Assembly: GCA_965249275.1 (NCBI GenBank)
Contig: CBDFLQ010000007.1
Coordinates: 704,001-768,000 of the forward strand
DNA: 64,000 nt
Direction of reading: 5' to 3'
Source: Dehalococcoidia bacterium
GTDB taxonomy: Bacteria > Chloroflexota > Dehalococcoidia > Plut-88900
In this document: piece after piece, positions 5,361-56,155 of the stretch
Numbering within the stretch: position 1 is the first letter of the stretch
How the letters are laid out: each line of letters opens with the position of its first letter
Notes under the pieces: generated by a model
Databases searched by the model: none
What the model was told of the DNA's origin: nothing
What the model saw: only the letters and a program-made list of their open reading frames with translations
Program-made: the position numbers and the translations under genes

Positions 5361-6341
5361 TTGCCCTACCAACGAGACCTTCTGCCCTCGTTCGCCGGTA
5401 TCAACACCTTCGCCCGTGCCCCGCAGGCCGGATTCGAGGATGTCGGGCCCGGTTGCGTCGCCGTCTTAGGCGTCCCCCACGACGGCTCCTCCACCTCCCG
5501 CCAGGGCGTTAGGCAGGGCCCCCGGGCTATCCGGGAAGCCAGCGCCGACTTCATCTACGAACTCCAGGCCTCCGAGGCTGGTGCCCTCATCGACGTCATA
5601 TCAGGCCGGGTGCTCCACCTCCCCCAACCCTCGACCCTTCTCGACCTCGGAGACCTCACCCTTTCTCCTCTGGACCTTCCCGGCAACCTGGATGCTTGCC
5701 GATCCGCCTTCTCCCGCATCGCCGAAGCCGGTGCCTGCCCCGTCGCCCTCGGCGGCGACCGCTTTATCACATTCCCCCTCCTTGAGGGCGTGAAGGCCGG
5801 ATCGGGCCGCAGCCTCGGCCTGATACGCATCTCCGCTGAACTCTCCCTCGCCGACCCCGATTCCCAATACGGCCCCGATTGGTCCGGCGCTTCTATCCGC
5901 CGCATCCTGGACGCCGGCGGCGTCGAGGCCCGTAACACAGTATTAGTCGGGACCCAGGGCTATATACCCTACCGGGAGTGGGAGTACGCTCGCTCACAGG
6001 GCGTCACCGTAATAACCGCCGACTCAGTGAAAGCCGAGGGCCTCGAGGCAACAGTGCGCCGGGCGTTGGAAATCGCAGGACAGGACTGCGAAGCCGTCTA
6101 CCTCAGCCTCGACATCGGCGTTGTCGACTCCGGCTATGCATCCGGTACCGCCGAAGTTGTAGTCGGTGGCCTTATTCCCCGCGACCTGCTCGCTATCATG
6201 CGCGAGCTTTCCGCATTCCCCAGGGTCGCCGCCCTTGACGTAGTAGAGGTAGCCCCCGGTCTCGACGTCCGAGGACGCTCCGAACGCCTCGCTGCCCAGG
6301 CCATTATCGAACTTATTGCACCCCCCGTTTTCGGGGCGTAA
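5361..6341 (+). CDS. Ureohydrolase (agmatinase/arginase family) paralog 1; metal ligands degenerate
   Basis: GVPHDG, GPRAIREAS, DLGD, DVVEVAP. GGDH->GGDR, DAHxD->SAELS, DID->DIG. TTG start after GGAGG. Confidence 0.88.
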   Translation: MPYQRDLLPSFAGINTFARAPQAGFEDVGPGCVAVLGVPHDGSSTSRQGVRQGPRAIREASADFIYELQASEAGALIDVISGRVLHLPQPSTLLDLGDLTLSPLDLPGNLDACRSAFSRIAEAGACPVALGGDRFITFPLLEGVKAGSGRSLGLIRISAELSLADPDSQYGPDWSGASIRRILDAGGVEARNTVLVGTQGYIPYREWEYARSQGVTVITADSVKAEGLEATVRRALEIAGQDCEAVYLSLDIGVVDSGYASGTAEVVVGGLIPRDLLAIMRELSAFPRVAALDVVEVAPGLDVRGRSERLAAQAIIELIAPPVFGA

Positions 6342-6354
6342 CCCCGAGACCCTT

Positions 6355-7338
6355 ATGACCACACAGTCGGCCCCCGTATCCACACCCGGCATTTCCACCT
6401 TCATGGACCTGCCCCGAGGCGACTTGGAGCACCTCAAAGAAGGTATGGCTGCAATCTGCGGCGTCTCCTATGACCTGTCCTGCACTACTAAGATTGGGTC
6501 GAGGTTTGGCCCACGAGCCATCCGGGATAGCTCCGGTTATTACGCCGGCGCATTCTCCCGCTCCGACCTCGTTGAAATCACTACCGGCGACCGCATGAGC
6601 GGCGACCGTCGCTCCCAAATTCTTGACCTCGGCGACTTCAACGCCTACCCCCTCGACTGGCCCCGCACAGAAAAAGAGCTCCGACGCTCCCTCTACGAAG
6701 TGTCCGCCACCGGTGCGACCCCCGTGATTCTCGGTGGCGATCACTTCGTCTCCTATCCCCTATGCCTCGGCTACGCCGACGCCATCCGCGAGCGCACCGG
6801 CCGCGGCATCGGCTACGTCCAACTTTCCAGCCGACTTGATCTCGGCACCCGAGACCCGGTCTGGGGAGACGTATGGCGTGGCGCAACCGCCCGGCGCATC
6901 CTGGACTCTGGGGCCGTTGCCCCGAAGAACATGGTCTGGATTGGCGTTAACGGCTACCTCCGCCGAGAGGAGTGGGACTTCGCCCAGGAAAGAGAGTTGT
7001 CCGTATTCACTCTCGAAGACGTGCGCCGCCGAGGCCTGCAGAACGTGGTCGAAAACGCAATGGAAATTGCAGGAGACGGATGCGACTCCGTCTACGTCAG
7101 CATCGACTTTGATGTGATGGACGGCGGTATCGTCGCCGCCACCTCAGACCCGTGCTTCGACGGCCTCACCAACGTCCAGCTTCTCAAAGCCGTCGACATC
7201 CTCCGCCGAAAGAAGGCCGGGGCCCTGGACCTTGTTGGCATGAATCCCACGGTGAATATGATTTCCGCCACCGGCCCCCGACTCGGGGCATGGATCGTCA
7301 TCCGGTTCCTCGCTGGAGAGGCCCTCGCCTATCCCTAG
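6355..7338 (+). CDS. Ureohydrolase paralog 2; DAHxD motif degenerate
   Basis: GSRFGPRAIR, GGDHFVS, QLSSRLDLG in place of DAHxD, SIDFDVMD. Confidence 0.88.
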   Translation: MTTQSAPVSTPGISTFMDLPRGDLEHLKEGMAAICGVSYDLSCTTKIGSRFGPRAIRDSSGYYAGAFSRSDLVEITTGDRMSGDRRSQILDLGDFNAYPLDWPRTEKELRRSLYEVSATGATPVILGGDHFVSYPLCLGYADAIRERTGRGIGYVQLSSRLDLGTRDPVWGDVWRGATARRILDSGAVAPKNMVWIGVNGYLRREEWDFAQERELSVFTLEDVRRRGLQNVVENAMEIAGDGCDSVYVSIDFDVMDGGIVAATSDPCFDGLTNVQLLKAVDILRRKKAGALDLVGMNPTVNMISATGPRLGAWIVIRFLAGEALAYP

Positions 7339-7352
7339 GCCATGACTTAACT

Positions 7353-8324
7353 ATGCAAAACTACGCGTACACATCGTCCCCCACCTTCATGGGCGCCCCC
7401 CTTGTAGGCCTCTCCGATGTCCAGCCGGGCATGACGGTGATCAGCGGCGCTCCGCATAGCCTCCGAGACCGCTTCGGCGAGAGGTACGGCCCCCGAGGCA
7501 TCCGCGAGCACTCCCTGCCCCTTGCCCAGAGTTTCGACCGCGCCGAAGAGGGTTTGATCGACGTGTCCACCGGGCGCACCCTCATCCGCCCCACCCAATC
7601 CCCCCTCGTAGACGTCGGCGACTTCAACAGTTACCCCTCCGACGTCATGAAAGCCACCGAGGGCATTGCCGGCGGCGTTTCGGAGGTGGTGATGAGGGGC
7701 GGATTCTCCGTCTGCCTGGGCGGCGACCACTACGTCGGTTACCCATCCTGCCTCGGATACACACGGGCCCTAAGCCAAATCAGGCCCAACGCCCGGGTCG
7801 GCTACATCCACATCGACGGCCACCTCGACTTCGCCGACTCCTACGGCCCCTACGGCAAGTACATGAATGGCACCAACGCCCGCCGAATCTCGGAGCTGGA
7901 CGCCATGGAACCCGCCAACATGGTTTTCATAGGCATCCAGGGCCCCTGCTACCTGGACCAGGTCGAGCTCATCCGCCGCTACGGAGGCACGATTTTCACC
8001 AGCGAGGACGTGGAGGAGATGGGCCCCGAGACCGTCGGACGCCGCGCCGCCGAGCTGGCCCTCAAGGGCTGTGACTCTATCTACATGAGCTTCGACATCG
8101 ACGTCATAGACGCCGGCTTCTCTGACGGCACAGGCTCAGTCACTATGGGGGCCATGACGGCATCCACCCTATTCCGCATCCTCGGGCCCCTGTCCGAATA
8201 TCCCATCGGCGCAATGGACCTTGTGGAGACCTCCCCACCCCTCGACGCCGGCAGCCGCACCCCCCGGTTCGCCGCCGAGGCCCTCGTCAAGCTAATCGCT
8301 CCAAGAATATTTGATATCTATTGA
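7353..8324 (+). CDS. Ureohydrolase paralog 3; intact binuclear metal site
   Basis: GGDHYVG, HIDGHLD, SFDIDVID, DLVETSP; ATG at 7353. Confidence 0.9.
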   Translation: MQNYAYTSSPTFMGAPLVGLSDVQPGMTVISGAPHSLRDRFGERYGPRGIREHSLPLAQSFDRAEEGLIDVSTGRTLIRPTQSPLVDVGDFNSYPSDVMKATEGIAGGVSEVVMRGGFSVCLGGDHYVGYPSCLGYTRALSQIRPNARVGYIHIDGHLDFADSYGPYGKYMNGTNARRISELDAMEPANMVFIGIQGPCYLDQVELIRRYGGTIFTSEDVEEMGPETVGRRAAELALKGCDSIYMSFDIDVIDAGFSDGTGSVTMGAMTASTLFRILGPLSEYPIGAMDLVETSPPLDAGSRTPRFAAEALVKLIAPRIFDIY

Positions 8325-8342
8325 GAACACGACCGACTCGGC

Positions 8343-8555
8343 ATGAAGAAGAGCGTAATCACTTGGCCCATGCTCCTGACGGGGTTAGTCCTGTTTTTCA
8401 TCGCGGGAATCGCGTTGTGGTTTCTCCACGACCTCTTCCACGACAGCATAGGCATATCCCTGTTATTGCTGTGGGTGGTGGCGGTCGTGGCATTTTGGGC
8501 TACCGTCCTGCTAATTGTGCTCAAGCTATTCAAGCAGATTTGGCAGAGAGTCTGA
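8343..8555 (+). CDS. Small two-TM membrane protein
   Basis: 70 aa with two hydrophobic stretches; fills the gap between paralogs 3 and 4 on the same strand. Confidence 0.65.
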   Translation: MKKSVITWPMLLTGLVLFFIAGIALWFLHDLFHDSIGISLLLLWVVAVVAFWATVLLIVLKLFKQIWQRV

Positions 8556-8577
8556 TGCTTAGAGTGACGAGGCCGTA

Positions 8578-9573
8578 ATGCCAATCCGCAGAGGCCCCAC
8601 ACCCAAGACCGGTGGGTTGCTCACCTTCATCGGTGCCCCGACGGGGACTATCGAGGAGCTGACACCCGGCATGTTCGGCGTATTCGGCGTGCCCTACGAT
8701 GTATCCGCCCCCGACCAGCTCGGCCCCCGACTCGCGCCCAAGGCCTATCGGGAAACCTCCACCTACTTCCAGATGATGACCGCCCAGGACGCGACTCTCG
8801 TCGAGATCAACTCCCGCCTTCCAACCGACACCAACCTCGTCCGCGACCGTGTCCGTGACCTGGGTGACCTCCCCGTATCCCACGTCGATTGGGAGATACT
8901 GTCTTTCACCCTTCGGGACGCAGCAAAACGCATCAGCAGCCAGGGCGCCGTGCCCATTGCCCTGGGCGGCGACCACTTCATCGCCTCCGCCTTGGCCCAG
9001 GGCTACCGGAAAGCAACCGGCGGACATATCGGTTATATCCAGCTCTCCAGCCGCCTGGACCTCGGCCTCCGAGACCCCGCTTGGGGAGACGTATGGCGCG
9101 GAGCCACAGTTCGCCGCCTCCTGGACTCGGGGACCGTCCACCCGAAGAACTTGGTATGGATCGGCGCAAACGGCTACATACCGCTCGACCAGTGGCAGAT
9201 TGCAAACAGACTGCCGGCTACTATGATCGACGCAGAGCAAGTCCGCCGCCGCGGCATCCCCAATGTAATAACCGAAGCCCTGGAACGGGCCTCCGACGGC
9301 TGCTCCGGCGTCTTCGTGGGCGTTGACATAGATGTCATGGACGGCGGTTACGTAGCCATGACCGGAACTCCCCGCTTCGACGGCCTCCGAAACGTGGACC
9401 TCTTCGAAGCTCTCACCCTCCTGGCCCGAGGCCCGGTTGGCGGCGTCAGCCTATGTGGCTTAAACCCTCTCATCGAGACCATGAGCCTGGCCAAAACAGG
9501 TCAGCGCTGCGGTGCAGAGATGCTGGTCCGTTTCATCGACGAGAAAATCAGAGTAGCCGAGGCCGCCAAGTGA
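8578..9573 (+). CDS. Ureohydrolase paralog 4; DAHxD motif degenerate (close to paralog 2)
   Basis: GGDHFIA, QLSSRLDLGLRDPAWGDVWRGAT shared with paralog 2, GVDIDVMD. Confidence 0.88.
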   Translation: MPIRRGPTPKTGGLLTFIGAPTGTIEELTPGMFGVFGVPYDVSAPDQLGPRLAPKAYRETSTYFQMMTAQDATLVEINSRLPTDTNLVRDRVRDLGDLPVSHVDWEILSFTLRDAAKRISSQGAVPIALGGDHFIASALAQGYRKATGGHIGYIQLSSRLDLGLRDPAWGDVWRGATVRRLLDSGTVHPKNLVWIGANGYIPLDQWQIANRLPATMIDAEQVRRRGIPNVITEALERASDGCSGVFVGVDIDVMDGGYVAMTGTPRFDGLRNVDLFEALTLLARGPVGGVSLCGLNPLIETMSLAKTGQRCGAEMLVRFIDEKIRVAEAAK

Positions 9574-10571
9574 GTGAATTGCTGGAACACGTAGAAGACA
9601 TCGGCGCAGCCACCTTCCTTGGCTCGCCCTACGTTGCCCTGGACAAAGTTGAGCGCGGGATGGTCGTCATCGGCGGAGCCCCCCACGACAGCACCCACAC
9701 CAGCCGCTTCGGCACCAGAATGGGCCCCCGAGGCATCAGGGAAGGCTCCCTCGCCATGGCCGACCGCATAAGCAGCGCAGGCCCCGACGGCATCCTTGAA
9801 GTCACATCCGGCAACCGGCTCACCACCCCCGCTTCCAACCGACTCGTAGACGTAGGCGACTACAACGTCTACCCATCCGACGTGATGAAGTCCACCGAGG
9901 GCATAGCCGGTGGAGTGGCAGAGGTGGTGCGTCGGGGCGGCTTTTCCGTCTGCCTGGGCGGCGACCACTACGTCGGCTACCCATCCTGTCTAGGCTACAC
10001 CCGAGCCGTCTCCGAGATGTCTCCGAAACCCAAGATTGGCTACATCCACATCGACGGCCACCTCGACTTCCGAGACGACACCCCCGTCTGGGGCAAGTAC
10101 AACCACGGCACCAACGCCCGCCGCATATCCGAGCTCGACCTCGTCAGCCCTTCCAACATGGTCTGGATCGGCATTCAGGGCTGGTCGGACGAGGAGCCCA
10201 TCAGTGCTATCGACTCCCAGGGAGGCCTCATCTTCACCGCCGCCGACGTTCTAAGGATTGGCCCCGAAGAGGTAGCCCGACGCGCAGGCGAGCGCGCTGC
10301 CGCCGGATGCGACTTCATCTATATGTCCGTCGACATCGACTTTATAGACACTGGCTTCTTCCCAGCCACCGGCTCCGTGGTCAACGACGCCATCACCCCC
10401 GACATCATGGCTACTATCCTTCGCGTCCTCTCTGCCTACCCAATAGGCGCCATGGATCTCGTCGAGGTATCTCCCCGCATCGACCCCTCAGGCCGTTCCA
10501 TGATTATGTCCACCGACCTCCTTCTCGCCCACGTGGCCCCCCGCATCTTCGACATTGCGCCAATGGGCTGA
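9570..10571 (+). CDS. Ureohydrolase paralog 5; intact metal site (close to paralog 3)
   Basis: GTG start overlaps the paralog 4 stop (GTGA); GGDHYVG, HIDGHLD, SVDIDFID, DLVEVSP. Confidence 0.9.
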   Translation: MSELLEHVEDIGAATFLGSPYVALDKVERGMVVIGGAPHDSTHTSRFGTRMGPRGIREGSLAMADRISSAGPDGILEVTSGNRLTTPASNRLVDVGDYNVYPSDVMKSTEGIAGGVAEVVRRGGFSVCLGGDHYVGYPSCLGYTRAVSEMSPKPKIGYIHIDGHLDFRDDTPVWGKYNHGTNARRISELDLVSPSNMVWIGIQGWSDEEPISAIDSQGGLIFTAADVLRIGPEEVARRAGERAAAGCDFIYMSVDIDFIDTGFFPATGSVVNDAITPDIMATILRVLSAYPIGAMDLVEVSPRIDPSGRSMIMSTDLLLAHVAPRIFDIAPMG

Positions 10572-16441: not shown

Positions 16442-16465
16442 CTATCTGTGCTGGCCCTCTCCCCC

Positions 16466-16557
16466 GTAGGGGCGGTTCGCGAACCGCCCGATGTCCCGCA
16501 CTGACGCTGCGCGAACCACCCGACTAGCCCCCCGTAGGGGCGGTTCGTGAACCGCCC
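16466..16557. repeat. Pair of GTAG-type REP palindromes (GTAGGGGCGGTTCGyGAACCGCCC)
   Basis: Direct copies at 16466-16489 and 16534-16557, each GTAG plus a hairpin. Confidence 0.8.
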
Positions 16558-16600
16558 GACGCCCCACTCTCACCCTGTCTAAGGGTTGTGTGGCGGTGGG

Positions 16601-16755: not shown

Positions 16756-18972
16756 TCACAAATGCGGCCTCCCCACCCCAAACGCCTCCCCAATCACCCG
16801 TTCCAGCAAAACCCTGTCCCTCGCTCCGGATATTGCCGACACCGCCTCCCGCAACGTCTCCCGGTAGGCGTTCAGAAAGTCCCCGTCGACGTTTCCCATC
16901 AAGACTTCTATCCGGTACTTCTCGATTGCTCCATTCATCATCCTGCTCAATCTCCAGGCCCCATTTCTGCTGAGCAGACCAATAAGAAACTCCCCGTCTT
17001 GCTCTAATGAAATCCTCTGGTTCGGATACTCCCGAGACCTTTCCAGATCGTAGGCGAAGTAGGCCACCGACTCATACACCACCTCGTCCTCCCCCCGAGC
17101 CCTCAGCCCAGATACTATCTCCGCAGCAAGATCGGCATCAAAGTAGGAGATCCAATATATAAGCCGAGCCGGTGGCACCCGCACAGGCCCCGACTCCAAC
17201 ACTAGGTCCAACGTCGTCTCCATGTCTGCGCTCAGAATCTCCAACGCCTCCTCCGGCTTGTACGCTATAAACTCCGACACCCGCGGCTTCACTTCCCTGA
17301 TAATCGCCAGCGTTCCCTCCGGGTCACTTGACCCCCTTGCCGCTACTCTCTCATACGCCTCTTCATTCGCAGCCTTGTCGATTACAAAGTTCCCCGAGCT
17401 GTTTTCAAAAAGCGTCCTGAGTCCATCCGTGAACTCCCCCGACCCCGCGTCTCCCTTAATCCCCAGCGCATCGACAAGCTTCGCGGGCCGCAACCTCTGC
17501 CGAGCCTGGGCCGGGCTCAATTGGAGGAAATCCACCACGGCCTCATCACTTATGTTTTCCAGAATTGCCTCCGCTGCCTGCCTGTCGGTGCTGAAAAGCA
17601 GTTCCAGGATCGTATCCACATTCTGCTGCAATTTTGTCGGGTCGCTCAGCCCCAGCGATCTCACATGCTGCTCCAACGCCCGTGCCCCTGCACCCGGGTC
17701 CCCCTCCCCCGCCTCGAGGATCATCTCAACGTCACCAATATGATGACGCAGCTCCTCCACAAACGCTCCAGCTCCCTTCGGCAGGGCGTGTGATGCGACG
17801 TCTTCCTCCTCCGGTTCCAGAACCGCCAACAGCAGTCGATTGTCCAGGACCGGCAGGAAGTTGTAGAGGAAAGAGTCCTCTTCAAGTTGCTCGGTCAGAT
17901 ACTCAACCGCGTCGCCATGCCCCCGCCCCATCGCCGACTCCAGCGCCTCGAATGCAACCGCTATTGAGTCTTCAGTCCCGGCGCTCTCGTATTCCTCGAC
18001 CAAGCCCGGGTGCCGCTTGTGGATTGCGAACATCTCCCGCAGGTAGCTTCTCCAGAATGGAAAACCCCGGTCCACGTTTACCGCGTCCCTCAGGCTGTCA
18101 TCGTCGCTGAGCACTAAGTCAAACTGCTCTACGAAGTCGATTAGCCGTTGCCTCTCCTCCCCGACAAGTATGTCCCTCACCTTTTCGTCCAACCCCGACC
18201 CCTCACCCCTCCCCACCCCCGAGTATGCGGCCGTAGGTATGTGCGCAATCTGAAGATAGCCATCGGTTAGCCGTTTGTCCTCGGGATCCAGACCTGCGTA
18301 CCATCCCATCAAATCGGCCCATGTCCCATACCCTCCGTCAGACATGTATTGGTCGAAGTACTTCCTTAGAATGGGAGGGACCAAGCCCAGGTCTCCTGTC
18401 GTGAGCCTCGGAATGTCAGCTTCACCCGCGTGGGTCAGGTCCGGCAGCCGACCCTGGTTTAGGTTGGGAAAATTCCTGAATCGCTCCCTCAGGGGCTCGT
18501 ACCTGTCCGGGGGTTGGAGCATGAAGCGCCGCAAATCTTCGTGATACCGCGCCATCGCCGACGGTAAAGTTTCCCCTTCAGCCACTTCCCACGACAGCTC
18601 AGGGTGCCCGGTTACAGGAAATGCTCCCCAATAGGCGTGACCCAACTCATGCGCCACTACATCCGGCCTCGCCTGCCCCACCCCCGTGAAACCCCGGTAC
18701 CCCGTGCTCCCGTACCACGCCGGCTGCCCCTCCATCCGGCGAACGTCCAGGGAAGCAATCACGTCCCGACCCTCGGGTGTGATATTAAACAGCGTGAAGT
18801 ATGCGTCCAGCCGAGCCTGGACCCAGTCCGGCTCGTTATCCGTAGCCGCTACTGGTTGCCCACATGCTATAGACGCGGCCAGCACCAATGCCAGCGCCAG
18901 CAGCGCTGATGCTGTGAGGAGCGTCCTTGGCCCGGACCCCGACTTCGGACCGCGCCCGCGGCCTTTGGTCAA
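16756..18972 (-). CDS. Putative lipoprotein with HExxH zinc-metallopeptidase motif
   Basis: Basic N-terminus, hydrophobic stretch and IAC lipobox-like site; VAHELGHAYW; long acidic helical C-terminal region. Confidence 0.75.
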   Translation of the reverse strand: MTKGRGRGPKSGSGPRTLLTASALLALALVLAASIACGQPVAATDNEPDWVQARLDAYFTLFNITPEGRDVIASLDVRRMEGQPAWYGSTGYRGFTGVGQARPDVVAHELGHAYWGAFPVTGHPELSWEVAEGETLPSAMARYHEDLRRFMLQPPDRYEPLRERFRNFPNLNQGRLPDLTHAGEADIPRLTTGDLGLVPPILRKYFDQYMSDGGYGTWADLMGWYAGLDPEDKRLTDGYLQIAHIPTAAYSGVGRGEGSGLDEKVRDILVGEERQRLIDFVEQFDLVLSDDDSLRDAVNVDRGFPFWRSYLREMFAIHKRHPGLVEEYESAGTEDSIAVAFEALESAMGRGHGDAVEYLTEQLEEDSFLYNFLPVLDNRLLLAVLEPEEEDVASHALPKGAGAFVEELRHHIGDVEMILEAGEGDPGAGARALEQHVRSLGLSDPTKLQQNVDTILELLFSTDRQAAEAILENISDEAVVDFLQLSPAQARQRLRPAKLVDALGIKGDAGSGEFTDGLRTLFENSSGNFVIDKAANEEAYERVAARGSSDPEGTLAIIREVKPRVSEFIAYKPEEALEILSADMETTLDLVLESGPVRVPPARLIYWISYFDADLAAEIVSGLRARGEDEVVYESVAYFAYDLERSREYPNQRISLEQDGEFLIGLLSRNGAWRLSRMMNGAIEKYRIEVLMGNVDGDFLNAYRETLREAVSAISGARDRVLLERVIGEAFGVGRPHL

Positions 18973-20039: not shown

Positions 20040-20380
20040 GGAAGCCTGTCCGCCTTAGGCGGATCATTCCGGCCGCCGAGAGCCGGTCGAAGATGCTGAA
20101 AGTGCGCCTTTGGCGTGCGCCGAGGCGTGAATCCATCCCCCGGCCGATGGCCCGCTCACCCTGAGCCTGCTGTAAGTCCGCTGAGGCGGATCGAAGGGTC
20201 GAGCGGGGGGCGGCCCCCGACTGCCAATCCGTCACCCCCGCCGTCATCCCAACCAAGCCCCCCTACCCTGTCATTCCGAGGCCCCGCGAGGAATCTGGGG
20301 GGCGGAGTCCTATCCCCTCTCCCTTTGACGGGAGAGGGCTAGAGCCTGCCCCGAGTCCCCCCGAGGGGGTGAGGGTGATC
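20040..20380. repeat. Cluster of several REP-like palindrome families
   Basis: ccgccttaggcgg; ccgctcaccctgag..gagcgg; gtcattccgag..gaatct (inverse at 47760-47800); ccctctccc..gggagaggg..gggtgaggg (inverse at ~48535). Confidence 0.75.
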
Positions 20381-20390
20381 CCCCCCAAAA

Positions 20391-20434
20391 GTGACACCAG
20401 CCCCTTGACCCGATATGAACATATGTACTATATT
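20391..20434 (+). promoter_or_regulatory. Sigma70-type promoter with LexA-like box (copy A)
   Basis: GTGACACCAGCCCC-TTGACC-N18-TATATT with GAACATATGTAC (20417-20428) in the spacer; homologous promoters at 32122-32164 and 48473-48516. Confidence 0.7.
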
Positions 20435-20439
20435 CTCCC

Positions 20440-21235
20440 CCAGGCCCCGACACCAAACATCGGGCCCAATCAGGAAAGGACCAAAGGAGTCCCATGAGTC
20501 GCACAAGCCTTCATAGGCCCCGTCGACACCGAGCGGTATGCCACCGCCCGGCCACCGGCACGCGCCTCCTCCCCAGCCCCTTCCCACCCACCATCCTTCA
20601 CATCAACACCCACTACAAGCGCTGCCCAAAGGCCCTACGCCTACGCCTTCGCAGCGATCAGTCACCGTCCCGCCCCCTGTATGGAAGGTCCCCGGACAAA
20701 TCACGGCACGCCCTTTCCAAGGACCACTGCCAAGTGCGCGCCCCACTCACCCGGCGCATCCGTTTCGCCTCCTCAGGCGACGCCCTGGAGCACGGCGTCA
20801 TGTCGCTCCCTCGGGCCATAGCGCCCCCTTGGGCCATAGCGCCCTCTTCGGACTCCCCCGGCGTAGACCTTGCCGGCCAGTCCGAACAGTCGGACAACCC
20901 CCGACTCAAAACAAACGCACCATTTAAGGATTCCACCGTCGTCACAACCGGAGAACACCCGACTACGAACGGCGGTCACGGGTCCCCGCTCCCATCCCAT
21001 AGGGTGGTCGAGCACTTCTGGTGGACGGGACTGCCCCACGCCGAGAATTTCTCGGGTCTCGTTCACATCCCCTCAGAAGTTAGGGGCTGTCGCAGAGCCG
21101 TCCCCGATGTGGAACATCCGCTGGAGCGGACGCCAAGCATCGGTACAGGCGTAGACGCCTTCTCGCGCAACCGTCCGGGACCTTCCATCACCCTCCCATC
21201 CCCCACCCACAACCCCACATATCCCTCACCGACCA
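20440..21235 (+). ncRNA. Candidate large structured ncRNA, copy A (divergent family member)
   Basis: Domain 20681-21188 closed by ATGGAAGGTCC(C)CGGAC / GTCCGGGACCTTCCAT; many internal hairpins; C/A-rich leader and tail as in copies B and C. Confidence 0.5.
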
Positions 21236-21248
21236 TTGGAGGCCGCCC

Positions 21249-21551
21249 ATGCCTAGAGGAGGCCGCCGGCCCGGCGCCGGCGCACCCAAAGGAAACTACA
21301 ACGCTTTCAAGCACGGCAAGAACTCCCGCCGCCTGCGGGAGCTCGCCGCCATCCTTGCCCTCGTACCCCGCACCCGCCGCCCTGCCCAGGGTGACCCCCA
21401 GAAAGCCCGGCTCGCTTCCGCCCTCGCACTCTCCTCCTTTATGGACCGCCTTTCCCTCCACTCTTTGCAACTCACCGACCCCGCCATGCAAAACCTCCAT
21501 CGTGCCGTCAAAGCCCTTCAACCTCCCAAACCTAAGCGCTCAAGGGAATAG
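21249..21551 (+). CDS. Small basic protein with GAPKGNxNAxKHG motif (phage terminase-small-subunit-like motif)
   Basis: GGAGG RBS before the ATG; MPRGGRRPGAGAPKGNYNAFKHG. Confidence 0.65.
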   Translation: MPRGGRRPGAGAPKGNYNAFKHGKNSRRLRELAAILALVPRTRRPAQGDPQKARLASALALSSFMDRLSLHSLQLTDPAMQNLHRAVKALQPPKPKRSRE

Positions 21552-21748
21552 CCCGCTCTTGGCACGGACTAAGCCAAAAACCCCTCGGAATTTAAGGGGA
21601 TTTTCCGAAAACAATCAGAATTTACGCCTGAGTGCGCACATCAATCAAAAACCCCCACCCACCGGCCCCCCTTGCCCCCTCATCCCCCCATCCCCGATAA
21701 TGACCCTCAAGCCGCCGCCTTAATGCATATCTTGGGAGGAGAGACGCT

Positions 21749-23338: not shown

Positions 23339-24939
<1,601 letters not shown>

Positions 24940-31394: not shown

Positions 31395-32115
31395 AGGATG
31401 TACTCGTTCGGTAGGTTAGCGACACACCGGCCTTTTCTTCAGTCCTCCAGAGGCGGATCCTCCAGAGGCGGATGTTCCATCTTCGATTGTGGGGTTTCGG
31501 TTTCCGTTCTGTCTGTTGGGTTTTGGGAAGGCGATGGAAGACGCTTGCTGGATTCGGCTCCCTATTTTTAGATAATGCGGGCTTGGAGGCGTCCCGGGAA
31601 CGTGGGGACGGGTCTCCGCCGCCGCCTAGACCTGGAAGTATGGTCGGACGTACGGGTCCGTCATCCGTCATAGGCTCCGATGCAGGGTTGGCTGCGCTGT
31701 CCGCCGCAGGCGGGTGCAGGAAGGGGAAAGTCCAGGGTCAGTTCCCCTCGCAGGAGTACGGGGTATCCAGTTCGCCGCCTGTAGCCCGGAGCCGGGAGAC
31801 GGCGGCAGCCCAGTTTATTTGGTAAGCGGACGGAGAGCCGAGCGGGCCTCGGCTACGGGCTGCCCCGTTCCGCTCCATGGGACGAGAGCTCCGAAAGGAG
31901 CCATAGGGACAATTACGGTCCAGGGCGTCTTCCATCGCCTGATGGTCAGGGAAGGGATAGCCGGGGCCCTGGGTAGAGGAGATGGCGGCGTTCGCTTGTG
32001 CCGTGGGGCGGCGTGTGGGCCGCCCTTTGGGATGGGCTTGGACGTTGAGTCCTCGGGGCCGGGTGGGCTTCCCTAGTTTTTGGTACCTCCTTAAGGTGGG
32101 TGTCGGGTCTAGACT
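31395..32115 (-). ncRNA. Candidate large structured ncRNA, copy B
   Basis: Closely homologous to 47800-48465 over ~530 nt; 16-bp perfect IR AGGCGATGGAAGACGC (31529-31544) / 31925-31940; no ORF conserved between the copies. Confidence 0.6.
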
Positions 32116-32121
32116 GGCCCC

Positions 32122-32164
32122 ATAATAGAACAAATGTCTTAAGCGGTCAAGGGGGTGATGTCAC
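32122..32164 (-). promoter_or_regulatory. Sigma70-type promoter with LexA-like box (copy B)
   Basis: Minus strand GTGACATCACCCCC-TTGACC-N17-TATTAT; box GAACAAATGTCT at 32128-32139. Confidence 0.65.
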
Positions 32165-43447: not shown

Positions 43448-44668
43448 TTGTCTAGCCACAGGTTCGATATTGCTATCGTGGGGGGAGGGGTGGTTGGGTT
43501 GGCGACTGCCCTGCAGTTGTCACGACGCTTCCCATCGGCGCGGTGTGTAGTCTTGGAGAAGGAGGACGGTCTCGGGAGGCACCAAACCGGGCATAACAAC
43601 TGCGTAATTCACACCGGCATCTACTATCGCACCGGCTCCCTGAAAGCGAGAAACTGCGTGCGCGGCGCCCGGATGCTGAAAGCCTTCTGCGACGAGAACG
43701 GTGTCGAATACGAAGACTGCGGCAAGGTCATCGTGGCTACCAACCCGGAAGAGGTCCCGGCCCTGGAGGAGTTGTACCGCCGTGGAACGGCCAACGGTGT
43801 ATCTGGCCTAGAGGTTATCGGCCCCGAGAGGCTGCGGGAGATCGAGCCCCACACCAACGGGGTGAAGGCGATCCACTCTCCGGAGACGGCAATTGTGGAC
43901 TACAACGCAGTCACGGATGCTTACGCACGGCTGTTCAGGGAGTCGGGTGGGGAGGTGTGGACGGGTGCGCGGGTCAGCGGAATAGGGTCTCGGGTGGAAG
44001 GGCTTGAGATCGACACCGAGCGTGGCTCGGTTTCCACCCGATACCTCGTCAATTGCGCAGGGCTCCATGCAGACCACATCGCAGCGATGGCGGGCGTCAA
44101 GACCAACGTCCGACTCATCCCTTTCCGCGGTGAGTTCTACGCTCTCAAGCCTGCTGCCAAGGGATACGTGCGCAACCTGATCTACCCGGTCCCCGACCCC
44201 CGCTTCCCGTTCCTGGGAGCGACATTCGGGAGGATAAAGGGAGGTGTCATCAGGAGCGGGCCCAACGCCATGGTTGCAGGGTCACGGGAGGGCTACTCCA
44301 TCACCGACTTAGACCCAAAGGAAGCGTGGACTATCCTATCAATGCCGGCGTTCTGGAGGATGGCGATGCGCTACTGGCGGACGGGCCTGCAGGAGATCTA
44401 TTTCTCGCTGAGCAAGAAGGCTTATGTGAAGTCGATGCAGAAGCTAGTGCCAAGCGTTGGTGTGGAGGACCTGGAGAAGTGGGGGAGCGGGGTCCGGGCC
44501 CAGGCAGTGATGCCGGACGGGAACATGGTCGACGACTTCGTGATTAAGGAAACACGGAACGCGGTTCACGTGATCAATGCGCCGTCTCCAGGGGCCACGT
44601 CCTCCCTTTCGATTGGCGAGTACGTCACGGACAGAGCCGCTTCCATTTTTGATCTGCCCACCGCTTGA
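43448..44668 (+). CDS. L-2-hydroxyglutarate oxidase-like FAD oxidoreductase (divergent paralog)
   Basis: GGGVVG, HQTGHNNCVIHTGIYY, IYPVPDP.FPFLG, GVRAQA, NAPSPGAT. Confidence 0.88.
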   Translation: MSSHRFDIAIVGGGVVGLATALQLSRRFPSARCVVLEKEDGLGRHQTGHNNCVIHTGIYYRTGSLKARNCVRGARMLKAFCDENGVEYEDCGKVIVATNPEEVPALEELYRRGTANGVSGLEVIGPERLREIEPHTNGVKAIHSPETAIVDYNAVTDAYARLFRESGGEVWTGARVSGIGSRVEGLEIDTERGSVSTRYLVNCAGLHADHIAAMAGVKTNVRLIPFRGEFYALKPAAKGYVRNLIYPVPDPRFPFLGATFGRIKGGVIRSGPNAMVAGSREGYSITDLDPKEAWTILSMPAFWRMAMRYWRTGLQEIYFSLSKKAYVKSMQKLVPSVGVEDLEKWGSGVRAQAVMPDGNMVDDFVIKETRNAVHVINAPSPGATSSLSIGEYVTDRAASIFDLPTA

Positions 44669-47800: not shown

Positions 47801-48465
47801 AGGGAGCAGGCGGTGGTTATTCAGTTGGGATTCGAGGGTTTGGTTTCTTGGTTTTGGTTGGTGGGGTGGCGATGGAAGACGCTCGCTGGATTAGGCTCCC
47901 TATATTTAGATAATGCGGGCATGGAGGCGTCCCGGGAACGTGGGACGGGGCTCCGCCGCCGCCTAGACCTGGAAGTATGGTCGGACGTACGGGTCCGTCA
48001 TCCGTCATAGGCTCCAATGAGGGTTGGCTGCGCTGTCCGCCGTAGGCGGGTGCAGGAAGGGGAAAGTCCAGGGTCAGTTCCCCTCGCAGGAGTAGTGGAT
48101 ATCCGGTTCGCCGCCTGTATCCAGGAGCCCGGAGTGGCGGACAGTCCAGTTTTATTTGAGGAAGCGGACGGAGAGCCGAGCGGGCCTCGGCTACGGGCCG
48201 CCCCGTTCCGCTCCATGGGACGGGTTGCTCCGTGAGGAGACTTTTAAGTACGGTCCAGGGCGTCTTCCATCGCGGGGATCAGGGTAAGGGATAGCCGGGG
48301 CCCTTGGTAGAGGAGATGGCGGCGTTCGCTTGAGCCGCGGGACGGCTTGTGGGCCGCCCTTTGGGATGGGCTTAGACGTTGAGTCCTCCATTACGTGGGT
48401 CGGGGCTGGGTTTCCCCCCTGGGTTTTGTTACCTCCTTGGGTTTGGGGTGGGTGACGGATCAGTC
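47800..48465 (-). ncRNA. Candidate large structured ncRNA, copy C
   Basis: Homologous to copy B; 14-bp perfect IR GCGATGGAAGACGC (47869-47882) / 48260-48273. Confidence 0.6.
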
Positions 48466-48472
48466 GTGGGTG

Positions 48473-48516
48473 AATATAGTACATGTGTACTTATTGAGTC
48501 AAGGGGCTGGTGTCAC
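48473..48516 (-). promoter_or_regulatory. Sigma70-type promoter with LexA-like box (copy C)
   Basis: Minus strand GTGACACCAGCCCC-TTGACT-N18-TATATT; palindromic GTAC-N4-GTAC at 48479-48490. Confidence 0.7.
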
Positions 48517-48532
48517 TTTTTGCCAATAAGGA

Positions 48533-48790
48533 TCACCCTCACCCTAGCCCTCTCCCATCAAAGGGAGAGGGGACAGGACCGGTACAGACCCCGCACCGGA
48601 TTCCCCGCGGGACCTCGGGATGACAGGGGGGCTGCGGTGAAGGTGCAGGGTGAGCGCGATATATTGTCAGAACTGGGCCGCCCCCCGCTCGACCCTTCGA
48701 GGGCCTCCCGCCTGAGGCGGATCTTCGACAGGGTGAGCAGCCACTCTCAGGGATGGGTTCCCGTGTCGGGGCACGGGAATGATGGGGGAT
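48533..48790. repeat. Cluster of REP-like palindromes
   Basis: ccctcaccctagccctctccc..gggagaggg; gattccccgcgggacctcgggatgac; ccgctcgacccttcga..gggtgagc; ttcccgtgtcggggcacgggaatga. Confidence 0.75.
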
Positions 48791-54941: not shown

Positions 54942-56155
54942 GCTTCGACTTTGACGTGGGGGTGATAGGCGGGGGGATACTCGGGCTCTCAGCGGCGCGG
55001 GAGTTGGGGCTCAGGTTCCCGGGTCTCGGCATTGTTGTCATCGAGAAAGAGAAAGAATTAGCCCGGCACCAGACGGGACACAACAGCGGCGTTATCCACT
55101 CCGGCATCTACTATAAGCCCGGCTCATTGAAGGCGCACAACTGCGTTACCGGGGCCCGGATGCTTACCCAGTTCTGCGACGACCACGGCATACCCTACGA
55201 AAAATGCGGCAAGGTAATCGTCGCGGTGAACGATTCGGAGATTCCGGCCCTGGAGGAACTACACCGTCGGGGAACGGCGAACGGAGTCCCGGGCCTTCGA
55301 AGGGTCGGGCCGGCTGAGCTAAAGGAGCTTGAACCCCACGCCCGAGGCGTCGCCGCCCTACACTCCCCCGAGACCGGGATAATCGACTACACCCAGGTGG
55401 CCAAGGCCTACGCCTCAGATTTCAAAGAGTCGGGGGGCCGAGTCTCCTTGGGGACAGCGTTGCTGAGCATCAATCCCTTACCCAGAGGAATGGAACTTAT
55501 CACGTCAGGCGGCAGCCTGCGCGTGAAGCATCTTATCAACTGTGCGGGGCTCTACGCTGACGTCGTCTCCGAAATGACGTCGCCCGACCGCGACGTTCGC
55601 ATAGTCCCCTTTCGCGGGGACTATTACACACTATCACCACGGGCCGAGGGTCTTGTGCGCGGCCTCATCTATCCCGTCCCCGATCCCGCTTTCCCCTTTC
55701 TGGGCGTACACTTCACCAAGACCGTGCGGGGGTACACTGAAGCGGGACCCAATGCAGTTCTAGCTTTCGCCAGAGAGGGATACACTATCGGGAAGGTCAA
55801 CGGAGGTGAGCTTCTGAGGACCCTGTACTTTCCGGGGTTCTGGCTGCTGACTCGGCAATATTGGCGCATGGGAATGCAGGAATTCTTTAGGTCGGTGAGT
55901 AAGCAGGCGTTTCTCAAGGCAGCGCGCAGACTGGTACCCGAAATCCAGAAGGAAGACCTGGTGGAGCGAGGGGCAGGGGTGAGGGCACAGGCGGTCGACC
56001 GTAAGGGCCGGTTGCTGGATGACTTTCTGATAAGCAGCAGTAATAATGCGGTACACGTGAGGAATGCGCCTTCTCCGGGGGCAACGGCATCAATTGCCAT
56101 AGGTCGGCATGTCGTAGACGCAGCAGAGAAGGCCTTCGGATTGGACATGGGCTAG
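54938..56155 (+). CDS. lhgO: L-2-hydroxyglutarate oxidase
   Basis: HQTGHNSGVIHSGIYY.PGSLKA, FPFLGVHFT, GPNAV, GVRAQA, NAPSPGAT. Confidence 0.88.
   Translation: MSFDFDVGVIGGGILGLSAARELGLRFPGLGIVVIEKEKELARHQTGHNSGVIHSGIYYKPGSLKAHNCVTGARMLTQFCDDHGIPYEKCGKVIVAVNDSEIPALEELHRRGTANGVPGLRRVGPAELKELEPHARGVAALHSPETGIIDYTQVAKAYASDFKESGGRVSLGTALLSINPLPRGMELITSGGSLRVKHLINCAGLYADVVSEMTSPDRDVRIVPFRGDYYTLSPRAEGLVRGLIYPVPDPAFPFLGVHFTKTVRGYTEAGPNAVLAFAREGYTIGKVNGGELLRTLYFPGFWLLTRQYWRMGMQEFFRSVSKQAFLKAARRLVPEIQKEDLVERGAGVRAQAVDRKGRLLDDFLISSSNNAVHVRNAPSPGATASIAIGRHVVDAAEKAFGLDMG

Follow-up and report, generated by a model that had tools for sequence, protein, structure and literature searches.

Introduction

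OLE, GOLLD, ROOL and raiA are large bacterial RNAs of unknown function that are single- or few-copy and taxonomically broad. Other structured RNAs are present in many copies as parts of mobile elements, namely the omega RNA of HEARO/IscB, the bridge RNA of IS110, and group II introns devoid of an open reading frame (ORF). Large folded multi-copy RNAs have repeatedly proved to be working parts of new machinery, e.g. the guide RNAs of transposon nucleases and bridge RNAs. Dispersed repeats that bear promoters are also known, such as the Correia elements. For the Chloroflexota, few genetic tools exist and almost no regulation has been studied. Here we analyze a locus, hereafter copy A, of a sponge-associated Dehalococcoidia bacterium (Chloroflexota, Plut-88900; assembly GCA_965249275.1), at which a long structured RNA lies between a promoter and the gene for a basic protein of 100 amino acids. 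It is located in a stretch of 64,000 nucleotides (nt) of contig CBDFLQ010000007.1 (positions 704,001 to 768,000, forward strand), hereafter the window, whose numbering is used throughout.

Copy A is the sole place in this genome where a many-copy RNA still lies inside a small-protein cassette, and it thus ties an undescribed RNA family to an undescribed but widespread protein family. In the reading that we favour, to which we give about an even chance, a genus-specific RNA originated within the cassette's 5' leader and spread together with its promoter, mostly losing the gene, and copy A and its orthologs keep the full arrangement. The RNA family has no known partner enzyme, possesses its own, putatively regulated promoter, and makes up more than 1% of this small genome, as estimated from 57 copies of 600–800 nt in 2.9 Mb. 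Copy A is the family's only handle, in the form of a conserved small protein whose cassette would supply the promoter.

Copy A and its promoter

All elements of copy A are on the + strand. The promoter is of the sigma-70 type (20405-20434), with TTGACC as -35 (20405-20410), a spacer of 18 nt and TATATT as -10 (20429-20434), and a GTGACAC element is found 5' of the -35 at 20391-20397. A consensus scan recovered this promoter with 10 of 12 matches (2 sites found versus 0.2 expected). Its architecture is present in 57 copies of the genome, among which the GTGACAC element is conserved. The last 12 nt of the spacer, adjoining the -10 (20417-20428), form the LexA-box-like operator GAACATATGTAC. Downstream comes the structured RNA, consisting of a leader domain and a closed domain, for which we infer both the start (20441) and the end (21199). 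The closed domain is delimited by a helix that begins about 245 nt beyond the promoter and encloses 475 nt. Its 5' arm ATGGAAGGTCCCCGGAC (20681-20697, i.e. ATGGAAG at 20681-20687 followed by GTCCCCGGAC at 20688-20697) pairs with the 3' arm GTCCGGGACCTTCCAT (21173-21188, i.e. GTCCGGGAC at 21173-21181 followed by CTTCCAT at 21182-21188), with one bulged C. A C/A-rich linker (21189-21248), conserved at orthologous loci, contains the ribosome-binding site GGAGG (21238-21242), six nt 5' of the ATG of the gene for the 100-residue protein (21249-21551), the N-terminus of which reads MPRGGRRPGAGAPKGNxNAxKHG. Behind the gene lies a CAATCA module (AACAATCAGA...ATCAATCAAAA, 21612-21648). No + strand terminator was predicted from the promoter to the end of the ORF. 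Copy A may be a single transcription unit made of a promoter with a LexA-box-like operator, a folded RNA of ~750 nt, the protein gene and a pair of CAATCA repeats.

Two other members of the RNA family lie in the window on the - strand, copy B (31480-32160) and copy C (47830-48520). Since 20387-20439, the promoter region of copy A, shows 89% complementarity with 48468-48520, copies A and C share the same promoter on opposite strands; that of copy B is more diverged. Searched against the 2.9-Mb genome, the copy C RNA has matches at 46 places. A regular-expression search for the promoter returned 59 sites, two of them false, leaving 57 real copies that were assigned from the leader of each to A-type (11, including copy A), non-A (42) or atypical (4). 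With a covariance model built on 178 positions of the non-A leader, 54 sites were found in this genome. An earlier sequence-only reading of the window had dealt with three copies and had suggested that B and C may be protein-less copies of the copy A system. The count is superseded, and the suggestion on B and C finds no support: only one of the 57 promoter copies is followed by the protein gene, and copies B and C are of non-A type, a type mostly without the 3' module of the cassette.

The elements have a mosaic build that combines a conserved promoter with a 190-260-nt leader, the closing helix, an interchangeable interior of 350-500 nt and a C/A-rich tail. The tail of 14 of the 42 non-A copies ends in GTGTCACT, the inverse of the 5' AGTGACAC (8 nt); none of the 11 A-type copies has this ending. 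A separate small repeat (GTGGAACATCCGCC...TCCGCCT.TGG.GGA) was seen in the leader of some A-type copies (columns 48-90 of alignment A3, in genomes G002 and G007 of the same genus). It recurs in the tails of many non-A copies of the present genome (G000) and upstream of locus L033, and behaves as a mobile module of its own.

The LexA box consensus of the Gram-positive type is GAAC-N4-GTTC, from which the copy A operator deviates by one mismatch. The genome's own lexA (G000:C6:159597) has a perfect box, AGAACGCCCGTTCC, just after its -10, and recA has TAGAACACATATCC, with one good half-site. A 12-mer at a fixed position adjoining the -10 is found in 54 of the 57 family promoters, with one mismatch (22 promoters) or two mismatches (32 promoters) to the consensus, and its core nnACAynTGTnC is nearly invariant. 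The operator, judged by this likeness, fits LexA control of the family promoters, a possibility raised in the sequence-only reading; the resemblance to the genome's own LexA box stands, the control itself is a prediction, and the family has no perfect box. Should LexA truly bind the operator, DNA damage would induce dozens of RNAs at the same time in these sponge-associated bacteria.

A folded RNA

Copies B and C share the ATGGAAG/CTTCCAT core of the closing helix and have GATGGAAGACGC/GCGTCTTCCATC in place of the copy A extension. Helix variants were surveyed in those 49 of the 59 promoter hits whose 5' and 3' arms were matched to each other by the script. Two main extensions were obtained, GUCC/GGAC and ACGC/GCGU, which differ by two-sided changes at three consecutive pairs. 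The interior of copy A (20698-21172, 475 nt) aligns neither to copy B nor to copy C. It carries a tandem duplication with a period of 18 nt (20813-20844), in which the 14-nt unit GGGCCATAGCGCCC occurs exactly twice (20813-20826 and 20831-20844), for an expected count of 0.05 and with none of 100 shuffles reaching two. The number of units differs among A-type copies. The shared promoter, the compensatory change in the helix extension, the divergent interior of ~500 nt, its duplication and the basic protein behind a strong GGAGG had been put forward in the sequence-only reading. All are confirmed here, with small shifts of coordinates only.

The minimum free energy z-score of copy A is -4.96 on the sense strand versus -2.09 on the antisense strand. 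For a test at the family level, 21 A-type copies from five genomes were aligned (11 from this genome and 10 from G002, G003, G005 and G007). RNAalifold gave 135 consensus pairs, and standard pairs occupy 96.1% of the cells, versus 36-42% when the partners are slid. Eighteen pairs changed on both sides, versus 6.2 +/- 1.7 in shuffles (none of 500 reached 18) and 3-8 with partners slid, the sequences being related. The covariation covers 27 helices and thus extends beyond the ends of the element. In the closing helix, pair 403-1095 is CG in 12 sequences and UG in nine. G-U pairs are frequent on the sense strand and would be C-A, hence mismatches, on the opposite strand and in DNA. The leader hairpins of non-A copies differ greatly in sequence and keep their pairing. 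The existence of a folded RNA is thus supported by covariation and by strand-specific G-U pairs. In Rfam 15, a scan of the whole window at gathering thresholds had the 16S ribosomal RNA (rRNA) as its sole match, and E-value scans of copies A and C gave chance-level matches alone (E-value 0.76 or higher).

The 100-residue protein

The protein gene is real, as judged from a ratio of non-synonymous to synonymous differences (pN/pS) of 0.16-0.36 in 10 pairwise comparisons of five copies, i.e. purifying selection. We found 149 relatives among metagenome proteins, and species-representative genomes yielded 121 loci. Of these, 80 were kept, nearly all of them from Chloroflexota; seven or more copies are present in some genomes. 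In the relatives, the N-terminal stretch MPRGGRRPGAGAPKGNxN is invariant; next come a G that is nearly invariant and an S that is invariant, and the rest of the chain is variable and helical. One Dehalococcoidia record has at least seven copies of the small-protein cassette (L041, L057, L069, L097, L104, L106, L113), each with a promoter in which GAACCTACGTGC adjoins TATAAT/TATCAT. Six of these seven have ATT or ATC at the expected ATG, and in five of the six the frames comprise just 55-78 codons, as if decaying.

Pfam has no family for the protein, terminase families included. At the level of a motif it resembles NCBIfam NF040601 (TerS_not_xtmA), with 16.7 bits against a cut-off of 120 (E-value 0.004) over 27 residues only (residues 5-31); there, the GAPKGNxNAxKHG stretch aligns to positions 81-107 of the 233-position model. 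PHROG 1889 gave an E-value of 0.085. In the ESM Atlas, Chloroflexota clusters without names were found, and the nearest named cluster (score 0.77) has Phage_terminase in 14% of its members. The resemblance to terminase small subunits noted in the sequence-only reading is therefore right for this motif and does not extend to the whole protein. In a profile search of the Protein Data Bank, the best hit (E-value 0.14) was the coiled-coil-like ATP synthase b subunit, which we rejected as a relative. No match was found by tblastn among 50,697 phage records, with a low-complexity filter that may mask the motif, and a search for longer or fused forms of the protein yielded none that carry a domain. 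The ORF layouts around 21 homologous loci, in which ORFs were not matched to families, show solitary small genes with varied neighbors. An AlphaFold2 model, a check that the sequence-only reading had suggested, was computed from an alignment of 26 sequences and has a coil N-terminus followed by helices; it is too poor for a fold search (predicted local distance difference test score 60.7, predicted template modeling score 0.29). Literature searches on the protein motif, on RNAs of sponge Dehalococcoidia/SAR202, on structured RNAs of Chloroflexota and on LexA of Dehalococcoides, supplementary files excluded, retrieved no description of the motif or of the RNA. A passage of one article (10.64898/2026.10.21.760802) deals with tandem-repeat arrays and is unrelated.

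A promoter-protein-CAATCA cassette in Chloroflexota

The promoter of the RNA family recurs with the protein in genomes far from the genus. A GTG[AC]CA[CT] motif is present within 200 nt upstream of 28 of the 77 homologs from other genomes, versus 3% of 2956 control windows, and nine of these 77 loci have a LexA-like box adjoining the -10 (0.2% of controls). At the distant loci the promoter is located ~60-110 nt from the ORF. Downstream, at least two CAATCA motifs within 300 nt were counted for 16 of 74 homologous ORFs, versus 0.4% of 830 control windows, with a mean of 0.96 motifs per 300 nt versus 0.09. By blastn, the family RNA was found at 3 of the 80 homolog loci, all three from the genus. 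The association of homologs with both promoter and RNA, which the sequence-only reading had put forward as a check, is seen for the promoter in paralogs of the genus and at the 28 distant loci; for the RNA it is limited to genus loci.

The genus also contains cassettes without the RNA. In the present genome, a paralogous cassette (G000:C7:204645-205300, - strand, the paralog at G000:C7:205162) has a GTGACAC/-35 promoter (ATGTGACACGAACCCCTTGCC), a -10, the box AGAACATTTATTCG and an ORF of 100 amino acids (MPSGGSRPGAGAPRGN...), behind which about a dozen CAATC-type motifs form an array with a 21-nt period. Its orthologs in G004, G006, G007 and G008 have the same build. At G000:C5:231933-232142 (+ strand), a family-type promoter whose box, GAACATATGTTG, is nearly perfect lies ~118 nt ahead of a CAATCA array that is homologous to that of the paralog, with no ORF or large RNA between them. 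Altogether, promoter (GTGACAC, -35, operator), protein and CAATCA repeats constitute a small cassette that occurs across Chloroflexota, often in several copies per genome, without the large RNA. The invariant 26-residue N-terminus and the adjacent repeats make a direct binding test possible.

Association of the RNA with the protein gene

The arrangement of copy A is shared by related species. At the syntenic locus of G005, G003 and G001, an A-type RNA precedes full-length relatives of the protein; in G002 an A-type RNA is likewise present, and the match to the gene is split into two pieces that lie in different frames. At these four loci CTTCCAT is positioned 61-67 nt before the ATG. G003 has RNA and protein together once more, at a second locus that is not syntenic, where CTTCCAT lies 149 nt upstream. 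G001 has in addition a truncated copy fused to the promoter. In G004, G006, G007 and G008 the genes flanking copy A are far apart and the locus is not comparable.

The CAATCA module gives a further link. Among the 34 CAATCA clusters of the genome, 12 are within 450 nt downstream of a family element. Such a cluster follows seven of the 11 A-type RNAs versus 4 of the 42 non-A copies (Fisher p = 5e-4), and this retention fits A-type copies being protein-less derivatives. In six of the seven, the intervening 56-287 nt leave too little room for the gene; these six look like the copy A arrangement minus the ORF. The proposal that copy A is the complete RNA and protein version, the other copies having lost the protein, can thus be upheld for the A-type subfamily and for the origin of the promoter, and finds no support for copies B and C.

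Distribution, gain and loss, and expression

The RNA family is restricted to one genus in the genomes searched. By blastn it was found in all eight other genomes of the genus and not found in three other genera of the family nor in one genome from each of 29 other families of the class. The covariance model detected it in nine of nine genus genomes and in none of three taken from the order's other genera. Of 151 genomes sampled evenly across the class, 5 were positive, all of this genus and including the present one, and the other 146 were negative. Copies have been gained or lost within the genus, because the copy C site carries an element in G005 and G003, whereas it is empty in G001 and G007, with 30 nt and 79 nt, respectively, separating the flanks; at these empty sites the flanks are too diverged for a target-site duplication to be read. 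The copy C site of G002 (L156, G002:C1:650800-652950) holds an unrelated insert of ~1.9 kb, seemingly A+T-richer and with long open frames, between convergent genes, and the spacer of copy C seems to be an insertion hot spot.

We considered known mobile elements as carriers. RVT_1, Y1_Tnp and TnpB domains were looked for in this genome (87% complete) and not found, other transposase families not having been searched. Readings of the element as a retroelement (group II intron or retron), as IS200/IS605 or as a TnpB system were rejected on this ground. RVT_1 occurs in three of the nine genus genomes, while all nine carry the RNA family.

Regarding expression, contigs from four sponge metatranscriptome runs, all of the same study, align to the A-type interior (20513-21192) with 92-100% identity. 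They give weak support to expression of the RNA, as an origin from paralogs or carry-over of DNA is possible. No contig covers 21221-21664 (the ORF and beyond), which is uninformative on expression.

Possible origin and function of copy A

The favoured scenario can be described as follows. The structured RNA would have arisen or inserted in the 5' leader of the cassette in one Dehalococcoidia genus. Along with the promoter it would then have dispersed through the genome to reach 57 promoter copies, most of which lost the gene. A LexA-type repressor would keep the promoter shut, and upon derepression the RNA would be made as a long leader of the protein's mRNA. The protein, by means of its arginine- and glycine-rich N-terminus, could bind the CAATCA repeats behind its own gene. 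Elsewhere, the RNA copies may be made alone or as leaders of whichever gene is downstream.

We also propose, more tentatively and with doubt prevailing, a joint reading. A minimal, self-contained and DNA-damage-responsive cassette of Chloroflexota (GTGnCAC promoter, LexA-like operator, protein of ~100-170 amino acids with an invariant N-terminus, CAATCA iteron-like repeats, often multi-copy) and a leader-born RNA of 600-800 nt amplified to ~60 copies might together represent a new class of RNA-bearing dispersed element. Its spread or function would depend on damage-induced transcription and on the small protein in trans, without any known kind of nuclease, recombinase or reverse transcriptase.

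Several observations weigh against the favoured scenario. In this genome the protein gene is 3' of one promoter copy of the 57, that of copy A, and tblastn recovers the gene itself and one N-terminal paralog, no more. Four of the nine genus genomes (G004, G006, G007 and G008) have A-type RNAs and no ortholog of the protein; the RNA is therefore independent of the protein in cis, and of the ortholog in trans. ORF remnants were sought in the A-type copies that have the CAATCA module and lack the gene, and none were found, so that the order of events given above is deduced from distribution alone. Genes 3' of other copies, non-A copies among them, are unrelated and include, by their first residues, an aminoacyl-tRNA synthetase, UvrA, GyrB and amidohydrolase-like paralogs. 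The downstream gene shares the orientation of the element in just 37 of 57 cases (binomial p = 0.03, from crude gene calls). A perfect LexA box is present in none of the 57 family promoters, and the perfectly palindromic operator variant GTACACATGTAC could serve another repressor. The structure model is poor, and no fold or family backs binding of DNA or RNA by the protein. Finally, counts across the genomes of the genus are not independent, these genomes being kin. As a separate matter, we rejected the idea that the RNA copies define a regulon: beyond six mutually similar amidohydrolase-like proteins and three proteins similar to luciferase-like oxidoreductases, again judged from first residues only, downstream genes have no common theme.

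These points raise the question of whether RNA and protein are functionally linked at all. The RNA could be an independent dispersed, possibly mobile, repeat with its own promoter, one copy of which landed before a small gene by chance. The 56 promoter copies without the protein, the diversity of downstream genes, the four genomes with RNA and no ortholog, and the copy C site that is empty in two species all speak in this sense, as does confinement to one genus, which is typical of selfish repeats. We nevertheless hold this to be unlikely, since well beyond the genus, where there is no such RNA, this type of promoter goes with the protein family, since the CAATCA module is concentrated behind A-type copies, and since RNA and protein are found together at the second G003 locus. 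That no reverse transcriptase, Y1 transposase or TnpB was found in the 87% complete genome also argues against it. A different possibility starts from the protein: copy A would be the packaging remnant of a prophage or satellite, with an SOS-induced relative of the terminase small subunit, a pac-like site formed by the CAATCA repeats, and an incidental RNA. Such an origin had been entertained in the sequence-only reading. The motif-level matches to terminase models, the named ESM Atlas cluster, the repeated sites adjoining the gene and the LexA-like operator can be cited for it. We find it improbable, and this part of the earlier reading is not supported, as the score lies far under the NF040601 cut-off and stems from 27 residues, Pfam and the phage records are silent, the neighbors of copy A are metabolic genes, and the homologs are solitary small genes with varied surroundings and no longer or fused forms that carry a domain were found.

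Two other explanations concern the nature of the region itself. That the closing helix acts in DNA, as an inverted repeat for a recombinase or transposase bordering an invertible or excisable segment, is very improbable given the frequent G-U pairs in this and other helices, which are mismatches in DNA or on the opposite strand. Covariation in 27 helices, i.e. not at the ends alone, a fold signal that is stronger on the promoter's strand, and the absence of inverted-orientation variants among the aligned copies point the same way; arms that stay complementary between types, the 14 non-A tails that mirror the 5' end, and gain or loss of copies between species would be accommodated by such a repeat. 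We also examined whether the region encodes a protein, through an ORF of 409 amino acids (20494-21723) that starts at the conserved ATGAGTCGCA behind an AGGAG site. In each of the 11 A-type copies of the genome, the frame from the ATGAGTCGCA ATG runs for 246-409 codons without a stop, which could suggest coding. However, it overruns the real 100-residue gene in another frame, third codon positions are not enriched in differences between copies (by inspection of the A-type alignment), and the stems within it covary. The strand is poor in T and G, and stop codons are therefore rare. The coding interpretation was rejected, and we give it practically no credence. The scenario of an RNA born in the leader of the cassette is the one that we prefer.

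Other features of the window

Copy A is flanked by a 2-hydroxyacid dehydrogenase gene and an MmgE/PrpD gene. After the latter, 1.8 kb downstream of copy A, lies a complete bacterial 16S rRNA gene (23339-24936, + strand, 1512.6 bits). Short repeat families of the repetitive extragenic palindrome (REP) type, e.g. CCCCTCTCCCTTTGA.GGGAGAGGGCTAG and GTCATTCCGAGGC.CCGCGAGGAATCTGGGG, crowd the spacers upstream of copies A and C (20191-20342 and 48544-48700), are also present at 16461-16577, and recur upstream of many family copies genome-wide. At 5640-10150, repeat families D1, D3, D4, D8 and D10, ~1 kb apart and 64-82% identical, suggest a run of tandem paralogous genes. The regions 43546-43809 and 55033-55296, 11.5 kb apart and 72-78% alike (families D2 and D13), are probably paralogous genes as well. 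An ORF of 737 amino acids, read from a TTG start at 16756-18972 (- strand), appears by eye to be hydrophobic over a stretch close to the N-terminus; Pfam has no family for it at an E-value of 0.001 or better.

Comparison with known systems

With OLE, GOLLD, ROOL and raiA, the RNA family described here has in common a length of 600-800 nt, many helices, a long-range closing stem and discovery from sequence alone. It differs from them by its ~60 copies per genome, its mosaic interiors and its restriction to one genus among the genomes searched. The many-copy RNAs of HEARO/IscB, IS110 and ORF-less group II introns are closer in this respect: they too are large folded RNAs in tens of copies per genome, gained and lost between species, with protein-less copies outnumbering complete ones. 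However, the present family has no attached nuclease, recombinase or reverse transcriptase and no match in Rfam 15, and each RNA copy is preceded by a promoter and an operator. As for the protein, its likeness to phage terminase small subunits (NF040601, PHROG 1889) is limited to the GAPKGNxNAxKHG stretch; it is far under the threshold, less than half as long, and without phage context or a match in phage records. The putative regulation resembles that of the LexA (SOS) regulon by a 12-mer with an AC-N4-GT core in the promoter spacer, adjoining the -10, a position suited to repression. The differences are that the family copies carry one or two mismatches, none being perfect, that 54 sites would exceed the usual SOS regulon, and that binding is only predicted. 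Finally, a near-identical promoter before many unrelated genes is a trait that this RNA family shares with promoter-bearing dispersed repeats and with reused promoters ('Promoter reuse in prokaryotes', PMC3575422). In contrast to such reused promoters and promoter-bearing repeats, the family described here adds a covarying RNA of 600-800 nt and an operator, and its elements are several times larger.

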